Source: Candidatus Bathyarchaeota archaeon
Lineage (GTDB): Archaea; Thermoproteota; Bathyarchaeia; Bathyarchaeales; Bathycorpusculaceae
Length of the DNA: 64,000 nucleotides
Reading direction: 5' to 3'
Assembly: GCA_963715865.1 (NCBI GenBank)
Contig: OY970280.1
Span: forward strand, 1,184,001 to 1,248,000
Shown here: piece after piece, positions 52,402 to 61,919 of the stretch
Position numbering within the stretch: the first letter of the stretch is position 1
Layout of the letters: each line of letters opens with the position of its first letter
Position numbers and translations under genes: made by a program
Notes under the pieces: model-generated
Told to the model about the DNA's origin: nothing
Seen by the model: only the letters and a program-made list of their open reading frames with translations
Database searches by the model: none

Positions 52402-54087
52402 TTATGAAACAGAGGCTTTAACTTGCAGGGCAACCCTTTTAGCAACATTTTCCGTTAACATTCCTATAAGTTGCCCGTTTTTAACCATGACAGCTCGCTT
52501 TATGCCCTTTTCCTCCATAAGCTTCATGGCTGTAATCATTGATTCGTTTCCTTGAAGAATTATAAGCGGCGTGTAGTTGAGGTCTTTTGCAAGTGTTTTC
52601 TTAGGGTCCTTGTGTTCTTCAACTATTTCCTTCAAAATGTCCCTGTCGTTTATTACCCCGACTGGCTTATGATGCTCAGTTATCAGAACTGAAGTAACAT
52701 TGTTTTGCAACATTTTGTCAACAAGTTTAGCCACTATTTCAGTTGTTGAAATCTCAACTATTGGAAGTTTAGTGCCCGCTTGGTTGCTGATTTCCGAGAT
52801 GTCGATTCCTCTCTTCCAAATATCATTAAGCATTTCGCTTACTCTTTCAATTTGGCTGGGATCACTGGAGTAGAAGGTGTCAGCCAAGTAAAAGGCAGAT
52901 TCAGTACCCAAATCGCTTAACGGCGGCATCTTAAACATGAACAGGTGCTTGTTATCAACAAGCATCATTGTTAGGTAGCTGATTGGCACATGCTTGACTT
53001 CATAACTAGTTGAAAGTTTTTGTGCTGGTTCAAGGTTGTCTAAGTCTATTGACGCCATTATTCGAACATTTAAGCCTTTTTTGAAGTATTTTATTAATGG
53101 GTCATCTTCAGCCAGACGGTTAATGCTTTGGGATGAAGTGATTATTACAATGTCTTTTTTTGCTGATTCAAGAATCTTAGTAACTTTGGACCAGGCTTCT
53201 TCAACGTCTTTAATGACAAGTGTTTCGCCTATTGGTATTCCACTCTTCAACTCCTCTATTCGCCTTGAAGCATCAACTCCGCTTTGCCACATTTGGAGGA
53301 AAAAAGCCTTCAGCACGGAAATGAACATTTTATCATTTATCCATAAACCTTCATCTTCCAAATTCAGCACGGATGCTTCATTGCCAAAAGGCGCATACAA
53401 GATGGCTTCTTCTTCATCCTTAATCAAAAAGCGCGGGAAAAATTTTGAACTCATAGCAACATGACGAAGTTTAATGTTTGATTTCTCTTCCGAAATATCC
53501 CTATCTATCCTTTCTGCAACCTTTAAGTTTTCATGGGAAATATCAGTTATAATTTGAAACGGTACATTCTGCTCTTGGGAAAAACTTTCGGCTGAATCAA
53601 AGATTCCCGCAATGTCTTCTTGAATGAAACCTAAAGCGGTTGTTAAAACTATAACTTCAGCTTCCGATTCCTCAATCATAGATAACATTTTAGCATGAAT
53701 CTTCTTCTTACCCGTAATTATGGAGAATTTAGCCAATGGATATTCTGATTCAGGAGCGCTTATAGATTGCCAAGCCGTTAAAAGAGTCGGTTTCTGTTCG
53801 CTTAGGTTGGCAACTTCATTCTTTTTAGAATTAATAAAAGAGTCCACTAACGCTTCAAAAGGAACAATCGTAAAACGTGTAGGTCTTTCCAAGGTTGCTT
53901 CAATAAAGCCTTTCTCCTGTAGTTTCTTGAATGTGCGGTATGCTTGAACACGTTCCATTTTAAGCCTTTTAGCTACAAAGCTAGTTGATTGGACGCCGCT
54001 TTTGGCAAGGAACAGGTAAACTTGAATTTCTCTTTTTGATAGACCGAGAATTTGCAGAAATCTTGTGACGTCCTTTTCACTCATCAA
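52402..54087 (-). CDS. TrmB-family regulator with C-terminal CBS domains
   Basis: TrmB HTH 'LGLSKREIQVYLFL...LQEKGFI...RPTRF', two effector-domain-like segments, CBS pair 'GVINDRDIL...GMLTE'. Confidence 0.85.
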   Translation of the reverse strand: MMSEKDVTRFLQILGLSKREIQVYLFLAKSGVQSTSFVAKRLKMERVQAYRTFKKLQEKGFIEATLERPTRFTIVPFEALVDSFINSKKNEVANLSEQKPTLLTAWQSISAPESEYPLAKFSIITGKKKIHAKMLSMIEESEAEVIVLTTALGFIQEDIAGIFDSAESFSQEQNVPFQIITDISHENLKVAERIDRDISEEKSNIKLRHVAMSSKFFPRFLIKDEEEAILYAPFGNEASVLNLEDEGLWINDKMFISVLKAFFLQMWQSGVDASRRIEELKSGIPIGETLVIKDVEEAWSKVTKILESAKKDIVIITSSQSINRLAEDDPLIKYFKKGLNVRIMASIDLDNLEPAQKLSTSYEVKHVPISYLTMMLVDNKHLFMFKMPPLSDLGTESAFYLADTFYSSDPSQIERVSEMLNDIWKRGIDISEISNQAGTKLPIVEISTTEIVAKLVDKMLQNNVTSVLITEHHKPVGVINDRDILKEIVEEHKDPKKTLAKDLNYTPLIILQGNESMITAMKLMEEKGIKRAVMVKNGQLIGMLTENVAKRVALQVKASVS

Positions 54088-58288: not shown

Positions 58289-58768
58289 ATCGGAAGCAAG
58301 AAAAAAATCTCTATATTCATCGTTAGTCTCATAAGAAGTTCTCTGAAAAGCACCCTTTATTTTCTTAGTAACTTCTCCTATCGCGTGAGAAATCCAATCT
58401 GTTTTGTTTGTAATATTTTTCGCTCCTTGCTGAATGCCTTCCTTTCCTTTACTATTTTAGGACTGGGTCGAGCGCGCAAAATTACATTGCCCTAAAAATG
58501 TTAAGTTCAAAACAAAAGAGTACATGACTTATTAAGAATTAAACTTTTTTACCAATAACAAAGCAAAGTTTTCTTTTCACTTTTTTGCTTTTACCATTTA
58601 AAATTAAATGTTTACTTATTGTGCTGTATTAGTGATATATGGGTAAGCGTACACTTTCCTTACTAGTTGGTTTTTTAGAGTTTCTATAAATAAAGCCTTA
58701 GTTAAGTTTAAACTCTGCGTTGAATAATAGGTAGAGCACCAATCTGGGAGCGCAGGGGAAAAGGGTTT

Positions 58769-60985
58769 ATGGTTAATTCGCCACCGCATCGTGCACGAGG
58801 CGTAAAAGTACTCAAAGCCGTTTCTTCACCTCTCAGACTACAAATCCTAAATTTACTATTCGATAAAAGCGCTCTATCTTACACTGAATTAATGAACCAA
58901 CTAAAAATGAACCCAAGCAGAGACGCGGGCAGATTTGCCTACCACCTAAAATTCATGCTAAAAGCAGACTTGGTTGAGGCAGATGTTGAAGCAAAAAAAT
59001 ACTACTTAACTGACATGGGCAAAATGGTCCTTGACGTAGCCGACCGCATCGAAAAGAAAGCTGTTAAACCAAGAGGAATGCTTGTCCGCACATCCCATTT
59101 AACACTGGAAGAATTCGACGCAAACAAAATAGCAAATTCACTCATAAAAGAAGCCAAAGTTCCAGCAGAACTAGCACAGAAAGCGGCTAAAGAAGCTGAA
59201 AAACGCCTAATCAAATCAAAAACAAAATACCTCACAGCCTCCCTAATCAGGGAAGTAGTGAATGGCATTTTGGTTGAGAAGGGTTATGAAGATTACCGCC
59301 ATAAACTTACAAGAGTCGGAATGCCCGTACACGAGGTAACCGCTTCATTAGAAGCAAAAGACACAGCCGAAGACTCAGCAGCCATACTTACAAGAGCAGG
59401 CCAAACCGTCCTAGGCGAGTACACGTTGCTTAACATTTTCCCAAGAGACATAGCTGATGCTCACCTCTCAGGAGCTATCCACATTGATGGGTTAGGCACA
59501 TGGATTTTAAAACCAAACGAGGTCATCCATGACCTAAGGTTTTTCTTCCAAAACGGCCTCAAACTTGACAATCCGCTCCAAATTTCAATGGAACCGCCGA
59601 GCAGCTTTGAATCGGCGTTGGCAATTACCTTCAACGTTCTCTTGCATGCCAGCAAAGAAACAAACCGAATGCAAACCTGCAATTACTTCAACGTTTTTCT
59701 CGCTCCCTTTGCAAAAGGCGCTGAAACGGCAAGAACAAAGGAAAACTTACGCTTGTTCATACTAAACTTGAACCAGCATGCTGAAGCTACTTTGGGGCTT
59801 GAGCTTTCAATTCCAAAATTAACCGCGGAAAAAGAAGCCATTGGTCCTCAAGGAAAAATAAATGGCAAGTACGGCGACTTCGCCCAAGAAAGCCAACTGC
59901 TCGCATCACTTATCATTGATGTCTTTACGGAAGAGAGTACCCATAAACCACTGCTAAACCCAAAACTAGTCATAAAAATTAACAATACTGTTTTAGCTGA
60001 CGAAAACGCTAAAGCGGTTCTCCTCAAAGCCCAGCGTCTCGCGGCTGAAGGAGGAACCCCATACTTTGCTAACATGACAAAGAAGGAAGGCGAACAAGTG
60101 GCTTTTTCCGCTTCCGGAGTTAAACTTGCGCCGGACTTAACTGGAGACTGGGAAACCGACACCCTGAGGACAGGTTGTCTTGGTTTTGTAACAATTAATT
60201 TGCCAAGAATTGTTCAAGAGAGTGAGAAGGACAAAAACAAGTTTTTCGATTTGGTAAGGGAACGTTTTGAACTTGCTGCCCGCGCCTTAGGAATAAAAAA
60301 TAATGCTCTCAAGCAATTTGGGAAAAACGTGTTGCCGTTCCTGATGAAAAAAGCCAACGGGGACTTTTATTTCAGGCTAGAAAACTGCTCGCGGATAATT
60401 AATTTGGCTGGTTTCCGAGAAGCCGTGGAGGCTTTCACTGAAAAAGACATTAACTCAGAGGAAAGCCGCAAGTTTGCCGAGGAAATCATTCAGAATATTT
60501 TGGCTTTCAAGCAGAAGGTCGGCAGGAAACATGGAAAACGCTTGTACCCTGTTATACTTAGCAGTTCCGAAGCATCTGAAAGGCTCGCTCAATTGGATAT
60601 TGAGAAATATGGTGTAGCCAAAGTGAAGTTTTCGGGAACAAGAGAAAAGCCCTTTTACTCAACCGCTAAAAGATTCCAAGTTAAAGCTGGCGAAACCCTG
60701 TCTATACCGCCTGAAACGTTAGAGACGGCGCAAAAAATGAAAGGGTTGAACGCCGGCGGAACCTTAGAAATCATAGAGTTGGAAGACGCTGAATTTAAGC
60801 CGGAAGCGCTAATGGATTTGACCAGGCGCTTAATTGAAAATCAATCCTTGGAATTCTTCACTTACAACCGGATAATTAGTTTCTGTGAAAACTGCAAAAA
60901 AAGCTGGTTCGGAACCTTGCATAAATGCCCATCCTGCGGCTCCATGAGCACACTGGCAACGTTTGACAGGTTCGCCTCAACTTGA
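58769..60985 (+). CDS. ArsR-like wHTH + ATP-cone + NrdD (class III RNR)-fold fusion lacking catalytic motifs
   Basis: wHTH at about aa 10-95; ATP cone 'EEFDANKIANSL...LIREVV'; NrdD-like 'HLSGAIHI', 'DTLRTG..TINLPR', 'LAQLD'; C-terminal CxxC..CxxC followed by 'DRFAST*' instead of RxxGY. Confidence 0.85.
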   Translation: MVNSPPHRARGVKVLKAVSSPLRLQILNLLFDKSALSYTELMNQLKMNPSRDAGRFAYHLKFMLKADLVEADVEAKKYYLTDMGKMVLDVADRIEKKAVKPRGMLVRTSHLTLEEFDANKIANSLIKEAKVPAELAQKAAKEAEKRLIKSKTKYLTASLIREVVNGILVEKGYEDYRHKLTRVGMPVHEVTASLEAKDTAEDSAAILTRAGQTVLGEYTLLNIFPRDIADAHLSGAIHIDGLGTWILKPNEVIHDLRFFFQNGLKLDNPLQISMEPPSSFESALAITFNVLLHASKETNRMQTCNYFNVFLAPFAKGAETARTKENLRLFILNLNQHAEATLGLELSIPKLTAEKEAIGPQGKINGKYGDFAQESQLLASLIIDVFTEESTHKPLLNPKLVIKINNTVLADENAKAVLLKAQRLAAEGGTPYFANMTKKEGEQVAFSASGVKLAPDLTGDWETDTLRTGCLGFVTINLPRIVQESEKDKNKFFDLVRERFELAARALGIKNNALKQFGKNVLPFLMKKANGDFYFRLENCSRIINLAGFREAVEAFTEKDINSEESRKFAEEIIQNILAFKQKVGRKHGKRLYPVILSSSEASERLAQLDIEKYGVAKVKFSGTREKPFYSTAKRFQVKAGETLSIPPETLETAQKMKGLNAGGTLEIIELEDAEFKPEALMDLTRRLIENQSLEFFTYNRIISFCENCKKSWFGTLHKCPSCGSMSTLATFDRFAST

Positions 60986-60989
60986 AATC

Positions 60990-61919
<930 letters not shown>

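Follow-up and report, generated by a model that had tools for sequence, protein, structure and literature searches.

A class III ribonucleotide reductase scaffold without catalytic residues, joined to an ArsR-type DNA-binding domain, is a candidate nucleotide-sensing regulator in Bathyarchaeia and Nitrososphaeria

Does a protein that is built like an anaerobic ribonucleotide reductase (RNR), lacks the residues of catalysis and begins with a DNA-binding domain still make deoxynucleotides, or does it read nucleotide pools? This question is raised by a gene in the window analyzed here, i.e., the whole stretch of 64,000 nucleotides from a Candidatus Bathyarchaeota archaeon (assembly GCA_963715865.1, contig OY970280.1, positions 1,184,001 to 1,248,000), and we use X as shorthand for this gene, at 58769..60985 (+) in the window, and for its protein. 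RNR sets the supply of DNA building blocks, and NrdR controls RNR genes in bacteria. In archaea, however, NrdR is rare (PMC9110341). A reading of the DNA letters without database searches (hereafter, the sequence-only reading) had cast X as a class III RNR turned pseudo-enzyme and repurposed as a regulator analogous to NrdR. Our own assessment is that X is probably a nucleotide-sensing transcription regulator derived from a class III RNR, whose DNA targets and ligand we infer.

Profile searches and structure prediction bore out the architecture described in the sequence-only reading, namely a 738-aa open reading frame (ORF) with an ArsR-like winged helix-turn-helix (wHTH), an ATP-cone and an NrdD core (Table 1). 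In Pfam, X matched HTH_5 at residues 20-70 (27.1 bits; cut-off 22), DUF7347 at residues 14-89 (above cut-off), the ATP-cone PF03477 at residues 105-177 (30.0 bits; cut-off 25.8) and NRDD PF13597 at residues 210-731 (235.2 bits; cut-off 26.2). The last match spans profile positions 16-535 of 562 and, since the last 27 positions have no counterpart in X, the glycyl-radical end is missing. The NrdD equivalog TIGR02487 scored 245.3 bits on X, below its cut-off of 326.35, the NrdR profile TIGR00244 gave no match in X, and X is 26% identical to the NrdD of its own genome. An AlphaFold2 model of X, built from 46 family members, had a mean pLDDT of 87.6, and its best PDB matches in Foldseek were all class III RNRs (from S. 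thermophilus, T. maritima, P. copri and phage T4; E 2e-27 to 6e-20). A separate model of residues 1-205 (mean pLDDT 80.6) matched HlyU, PagR, CzrA, SmtB and CadC (target-normalised TM 0.65-0.79; rmsd about 2-2.8 Å), and also the ATP-cones of NrdR and NrdB. The modeled wHTH runs in the order a1-a2-a3-a4-b-b-a5, which we take to be that of ArsR/SmtB proteins. A two-copy dimer prediction for residues 1-200 scored 0.01 against a mark of 0.42 and is evidence neither way.

The three catalytic sites that had been described as deviating in X do deviate upon comparison with solved NrdD enzymes (T4, 1h78; T. maritima, 4coi; P. copri, 8p2s; S. thermophilus, 9d3x) and with the NrdD of the genome itself. 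In place of T4 NrdD Cys79, X has E251 (GAG codon at 59519-59521), which lies opposite T4 Cys79 in the HMMER alignment and opposite the Cys of the genome's own NrdD. In place of the finger-loop thiyl Cys, X has V451 (GTT codon at 60119-60121). In BLASTP, the second Cys of the 'CCRL' loop of the own NrdD pairs with V451, whereas in HMMER Cys400 of S. thermophilus NrdD pairs with A454; since these placements disagree, the finger-loop alignment is uncertain by about 3 residues. However, X has seven Cys altogether, and none of them lies between residues 305 and 469. The position of T4 Asn311 is taken by C470, a residue that is not conserved in the family, and the NxN flap, which closes the active site in P. 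copri NrdD (PMC11226230), reads 'DSA' in X versus 'NSN' in the own NrdD. The sequence-only reading had left room for a retained substrate site; with the NxN flap and the Asn311 equivalent gone, and the core being the least conserved part of the protein, that suggestion is not upheld. The motifs that it had given as canonical agree with the nearest catalytic archaeal NrdDs, e.g., P0184 (RPNCLQHDLR, NSMGCRT and YSRITGY).

At the C-terminus, the Zn site is intact, its four Cys being invariant in 46 aligned members, and X ends with CPSCGSMSTLATFDRFAST, the stop codon falling 15 residues past the last Zn-ribbon Cys. The radical residues of the S. thermophilus enzyme are Cys400 and Gly697 (PMC12662201). 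X has no Gly at all after G724, and aligning R734 with the Arg of RxxGY puts S737 at the radical-Gly position. Because the stop codon of X lies only 4 nt from the end of the convergent pyrB, no downstream glycyl-radical domain is possible. Lacking both active-site Cys, the Asn311 equivalent, the NxN flap and the radical Gly, X is thus incapable of glycyl-radical ribonucleotide reduction and is a catalytically dead RNR scaffold.

The same losses run through the family. We counted motifs in representatives clustered at 50% identity and 600-830 aa in length. A Cys at the C79 position was present in 0 of 75 members with the wHTH versus 12 of 20 without it, a C[RK] finger loop in 1/75 versus 8/20, RxxG[YF] after the Zn ribbon in 2/65 versus 7/13, and all three catalytic motifs together in 0/65 versus 7/13. 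This loss across representatives indicates a family trait and not a local decay, and it agrees with the sequence-only reading, which had called X a dead RNR scaffold and had proposed a survey of its homologues for consistent loss. The residue at the C79 position is variable in the family (T, E, S, N, V or D), and the finger loop is shorter in Nitrososphaeria members. A long glycyl-radical-like tail with the Gly replaced (e.g., YSRSLAKYLPL versus the canonical YSRITGY) was found in 33 of the 65 wHTH representatives and a tail as short as that of X in 26, and RxxG is still present in about nine members (counted by eye in the tails). Judging by these counts, Cys loss is the universal change in the family, and the C-terminal end degenerated later in different ways; the missing Gly, which had been taken for the decisive change, is not that. 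Two representatives, P0146 and P0169 (the family is also seen in this form at locus L021:379-2691), keep RxxGY, e.g., VRRAEGYVKV, and have lost both Cys.

We surveyed 201 Bathyarchaeia genomes from about 30 families for X. The full-length wHTH form (query residues from about 10 to about 730) occurs in most of these genomes and in nearly every family, the exceptions being two families (f18 and f15) with NrdD-strength matches only; the overall tally of 182/201 also includes genomes with NrdD-strength matches only. A pattern scan of species genomes returned more than 570 further matching stretches, and nearly all among the 80 stretches kept carry the name Nitrososphaeria. These include Nitrosotalea, Nitrosopumilaceae and Nitrosomirales. 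In aerobic ammonia oxidisers such as Nitrosotalea and Nitrosopumilaceae, one would not expect an enzyme that depends on an oxygen-sensitive glycyl radical. Of 120 protein clusters at 78-99% identity, almost all are 737-739 aa long; their source names are mostly 'anaerobic ribonucleoside-triphosphate reductase', with a few 'ArsR family transcriptional regulator'. Related fusions under an NrdD annotation, whose existence had been suspected, do occur, and the family is an old one with a wide distribution in Bathyarchaeia and Nitrososphaeria. The reading frame of X is intact in hundreds of genomes, and the position of the stop codon is identical across the genus. At one Bathyarchaeia locus (L018:6059-11065, minus strand), a single open frame of 1668 aa extends from a P-type cation ATPase upstream through X; neighbouring genes that lack a stop codon between them are the probable cause, not a genuine fusion.

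In a quick maximum-likelihood tree of the core, which has a small catalytic sample and an unknown root and from which no donor is claimed, two changes of the wHTH label were needed, and X was placed in an all-wHTH clade of 50 representatives (SH-aLRT 100). Three NrdD-like metagenomic representatives (P0203, P0197 and P0220) have two ATP-cones, no wHTH and C-terminal ends without RxxG[YF]; they may form a second non-catalytic lineage. NrdD relatives with N-terminal extensions were considered as catalytic intermediates of the wHTH fusion and rejected, being double-cone NrdDs without a wHTH. Long relatives were likewise considered as intein-carrying dead forms and rejected, being intein-bearing catalytic NrdDs; P0192, P0179 and P0224 are catalytic archaeal NrdDs of 1200-1700 aa with one or two inteins that carry LAGLIDADG homing endonucleases.

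Conservation is distributed unevenly along X. Columns conserved in at least 90% of members number 30/82 in the ATP-cone, 11/87 in the wHTH, 0/23 in the linker between cone and core, and 21/491 in the core; the wHTH and the ATP-cone are the best conserved parts of X, and the core is weakly conserved. Within the genus, identity between the same genome pairs is 73-86% for X and 88-95% for the real NrdD, and X evolves about three times faster. In the wHTH, the putative recognition helix lies around RDAGRFAYHLKF, in which G54, Y58 and H59 are invariant, and its motif G-[KR]-F-A-Y-H-L is common to Bathyarchaeia and Nitrososphaeria. The cone motifs LVRTS, ExF..KI, YLTAPLIRE and EEYRHKLTRLG are also common to both groups, and E114, F116, K120, I121, Y176, R177 and R182 of the cone are invariant or nearly so. 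The canonical VxKRDG is replaced by LVRTS, such that T108-S109 lie opposite the Lys-Arg pair of the own NrdD, with the invariant R107 just before. In P. copri NrdD, Lys7, Arg8, Arg87 and Arg91 neutralise the nucleotide phosphates (PMC11226230). The ATP-cone of the sequence-only reading therefore stands as a profile match and as a fold, but not as a canonical cone, its Lys-Arg pair having been replaced; binding of ATP or dATP by this variant cone is plausible but not assured.

A separate intact RNR, the co-occurrence of which had been anticipated, is encoded about 890 kb from X in an nrdR-nrdD-nrdG operon. A search of the whole 2.35-Mb genome returned one full NrdD match (662 bits over profile positions 1-562; 586 bits on TIGR02487), with a CCRL finger loop and SRVVGYLRPV after the Zn ribbon, and no class I or class II RNR was found in the genome. 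This NrdD already carries an ATP-cone and is of the NF006126 type (1093 bits), while the NrdD beside X elsewhere scores 316 bits on that profile, below the 548-bit cut-off. The statement that no nrdG lies near X also held: no NrdG was found in the window, and the only match above cut-off genome-wide is the one beside the real nrdD, at 353 kb (TIGR02495, 186 bits). The operon is headed by a true NrdR (TIGR00244, 155 bits; cut-off 124.65; L001:3582-4028, minus strand, at about 355.9 kb of G000:C1), and the TATA box of its promoter (L001:4030-4110) is surrounded by an inverted repeat, TGTAGTG-N17-CACTACA, that is conserved in the genus. Among Bathyarchaeia families, NrdR was found in 26 of 27 genomes of the family to which this genome belongs (f1), in 10 of 43 of f18 and in none of the other 30 families; across the sampled families, NrdR and X thus have a largely complementary distribution.

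The gene order around X in relatives backs the link to ribonucleotide reduction that the sequence-only reading had drawn; the loci compared are related to each other, and the counts given here overstate their independence. In 68/79 Nitrososphaeria loci, the gene directly downstream of X on the same strand is nrdJ, which encodes a class II RNR. The class II RNR beside X has the domains Ribonuc_red_lgN, lgC and TSCPD, and no ATP-cone was found in the example scanned (locus L022). There, pyrB/pyrI often follow nrdJ, and pyrB is adjacent in 21 loci. Seven Bathyarchaeia loci, selected because they showed a second match, have a gene for a catalytic NrdD (WWSRITGYY) directly downstream of X. Among 16 further Bathyarchaeia loci, not picked for adjacency, X is followed by nrdD in 4 and by nrdJ in 1; pyrB stands beside the locus in 8 and there is no nrdD, nrdJ or pyrB in 5. 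At loci L115 and L116 (from G090 and G077), X and nrdD are separated by a small ORF of about 100-108 aa.

In the genus and family of this genome, X abuts the convergent pyrB with nothing between them in 12/12 loci. Both neighbours named in the sequence-only reading were confirmed, i.e., the convergent pyrB (TIGR00670, 393 bits) and a divergent histidine kinase; the latter lies upstream of X only in this genome among the 12 loci compared, and is an incidental neighbour. The simplest reading of the pyrB neighbour is that it is a remnant of an ancestral X-RNR-pyrB(I) order, from which the RNR gene was lost in this family. The family may have replaced its RNR operon with the nrdR-nrdD-nrdG unit and kept X.

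Upstream of X, we found a promoter block, TAGTTAAGTTTAAACT, that contains a TATA-like box inside a 10-bp palindrome, AGTTTAAACT, with AATAATAGGTAGAGCACC downstream. Both conserved words of the block are essentially unique in the 2.35-Mb genome, and the block is a candidate autoregulation site. In the 480-nt region upstream of X, a search for inverted repeats gave one weak pair only. The single match with 3 mismatches to a promoter word, at 96481, was dropped because the stretch around it is unrelated. The AATTTTTTAAAC that is common in Bathyarchaeia X promoters resembles an ordinary strong TATA box, and no common motif was found in the X-nrdD spacers across seven Bathyarchaeia loci. Nitrososphaeria loci show a roughly fourfold enrichment of TTGAC/GTCAA both in X promoters and in the spacer between X and nrdJ: it occurs within 100 nt upstream of 43/62 X genes (69%) and 41/64 nrdJ genes (64%), compared to 64/414 other genes of the same loci (15%). 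Its position is fixed 22-23 nt before the start codon of X, just after the TATA box, and the TTGAC half-sites are often palindromic, e.g., TTGAC-N5-GTCAA (loci L022-L101). We regard TTGAC/GTCAA as a lead to a possible cis-element shared by X and nrdJ. A TTGAC beside the nrdR TATA box of this genome was dropped, as it is not conserved within the genus.

How might such a protein work? In the mechanism that we propose, X would dimerise through its NrdD-type core, and ATP, dATP or a related nucleotide would bind the variant cone. ATP and dATP alter the placement of the cone against the core in catalytic NrdD (PMC12662201). The same movement in X would shift both N-terminal winged helices, and this shift would switch the binding of X to operators, both upstream of X itself and at genes that supply DNA precursors; the promoter of X would be the first candidate target in this genome. 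We tentatively offer a broader version as something short of an even bet. In it, X would be the ancestral regulator by which Bathyarchaeia and Nitrososphaeria control the supply of DNA precursors, a former enzyme in which cone movement driven by ATP/dATP steers the two winged helices where it once gated catalysis, and a bacterial-type nrdR-nrdD-nrdG operon would have displaced the neighbouring RNR in the family of this genome. If this version is true, then, since X was kept despite the displacement, X would control more than an RNR gene, e.g., genes for pyrimidine synthesis or replication.

The proposed design has parts in common with several known systems. With class III RNR NrdD, X shares the barrel fold, the N-terminal ATP-cone and the C-terminal four-Cys Zn ribbon; it differs by the lost radical residues, the cut-off glycyl-radical domain and the added ArsR-type wHTH, and it is not encoded with the activase NrdG. 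NrdR is often encoded with nrd genes and autoregulated. Like NrdR, X joins a DNA-binding module to an ATP-cone, its gene stands beside RNR genes in relatives, often upstream of them, and a reading of ATP/dATP is plausibly common to both; however, NrdR has an N-terminal Zn ribbon, whereas X has a wHTH plus a 500-aa dead enzyme body. The likeness thus concerns a possible way of working and not family membership. As for the analogy to NrdR drawn in the sequence-only reading, with a true NrdR present on the nrd operon, 'NrdR analogue' is not a simple fit for this genome. The first 100 residues of X have the fold and topology of ArsR/SmtB repressors (HlyU, CzrA, SmtB, CadC and PagR), whose metal-sensing sites are absent from X; the sensor of X would instead be the fused cone and RNR body, which adds about 640 aa. 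Regulators in which a wHTH is fused to a catalytically inactive enzyme fold include MocR/GabR (aminotransferase fold) and NrtR (Nudix fold). X has the same design, a DNA-binding head and an enzyme-derived sensing body, except that its ancestor is an RNR. A literature search that lacked most subscription journals found no publication on the X family or on an RNR-derived regulator.

Several observations weigh against nucleotide-sensing regulation by X. The variant cone lacks the Lys-Arg pair, and its ligand may be a different one, if it has any. X has no RNR gene beside it in this genome; the nrd operon comes with an NrdR of its own and with a conserved inverted repeat that resembles nothing at the X promoter, and we found no motif common to the X promoter and any other promoter of the genome. 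The TTGAC signal was found neither here nor in other Bathyarchaeia; in Bathyarchaeia X promoters it is not enriched (1.4 per kb versus 2.25 per kb background). The adjacency of genes in relatives would, moreover, suit a protein partner of RNR as well as it suits a regulator. A rival view is that X binds DNA but does not sense nucleotides: it would be a repressor that is constitutive or under some other control, or a protein of the chromatin type, and its RNR body would be a dimerisation scaffold only. The replacement of the phosphate-binding Lys-Arg pair by Thr-Ser and the weak conservation of the core would both fit it. However, the cone is the most conserved domain (30/82 columns), it retains ExF..KI as well as the Tyr-Arg and one more Arg in its last helix, the invariant Arg107 adjoins the lost pair, and a scaffold alone would explain neither this pattern of conservation nor the persistent adjacency to RNR genes; we consider this view unlikely. 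Adjacency to catalytic RNR genes in many lineages, together with the absence of an own ATP-cone in the class II RNR at L022, is what one would expect if X were a non-catalytic partner of a working RNR (a regulatory subunit, or a chaperone giving its cone in trans) with a wHTH that serves protein contacts. Since NrdD enzymes are dimers, a mixed pair of an inactive and an active paralogue is conceivable. Yet the partners would then have two unrelated architectures, class II and class III, the sole RNR here is a different NrdD subtype that lies 890 kb away with its own cone, and X begins with a complete ArsR/SmtB fold whose recognition helix is conserved; we therefore consider a partner role quite improbable.

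Could X still be an enzyme, with other chemistry in the barrel or another source of the radical? The barrel fold is intact at high model confidence, a minority of members keep RxxG (RxxGY in P0146 and P0169), and active-site layouts of NrdD can vary, as in the Thermotoga type (PMC4493059, as cited in PMC11226230). Nevertheless, no family member combines the Cys pair with the Gly, varying residues occupy the C79 position, X has no NxN flap, Nitrososphaeria members have a shorter finger loop and X evolves about three times faster than real NrdD; we give an enzymatic role very little chance. That X is a decaying pseudogene or an assembly artefact would account for the missing catalytic motifs and for nothing else; the frame that is intact in hundreds of genomes, the constant position of the stop and the 120 clusters of about 738 aa refute it, leaving it with practically no chance.

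With these readings weighed, the probable role as a nucleotide-sensing regulator makes the X family a concrete and testable candidate for the control of RNR transcription in archaea, in lineages of large ecological weight, namely the ammonia-oxidising archaea and the Bathyarchaeia of sediments. If the proposal is true, X would be the first RNR-derived pseudoenzyme with a regulatory role among the literature found, and an allosteric device, the cone on an RNR body, would have been reused to control DNA binding. The annotation matters as well: the pipeline name 'anaerobic ribonucleoside-triphosphate reductase' suggests, wrongly, that aerobic ammonia oxidisers make dNTPs anaerobically, and the same misannotation counts RNRs twice in Bathyarchaeia. 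Particular to this window are the short-tail subtype, the empty RNR slot by pyrB, the coexistence with NrdR, and the largely complementary distribution of NrdR and X across Bathyarchaeia families.

Table 1. Coordinates of X, its parts and the adjacent pyrB in the window.
Feature	Position	Strand	Description or basis
X, whole gene	58769..60985	+	single ORF, ATG start, 738 aa plus stop
Promoter block of X	58699..58740	+	conserved in the upstream regions of 12 genus/family orthologues
ArsR/SmtB-type wHTH	58802..59062	+	residues 12-98; HTH_5 and DUF7347 above cut-offs; model
Variant ATP-cone	59081..59326	+	residues 105-186; PF03477 above cut-off; model
NrdD-like alpha/beta barrel without catalytic residues	59396..60868	+	residues 210-700
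Zn ribbon, CxxC-x10-CxxC	60884..60937	+	C706, C709, C720, C723; invariant in family
Shortened remnant of the glycyl-radical loop, GSMSTLATFDRFAST, and stop codon	60938..60985	+	translation
pyrB (aspartate carbamoyltransferase)	60990..61919	-	TIGR00670, 392.6 bits

Elsewhere in the window, at 52402-54087 on the minus strand, we noticed a 561-aa ORF whose translation, inspected by eye, resembles a TrmB-type HTH at the N-terminus and CBS domains at the C-terminus.

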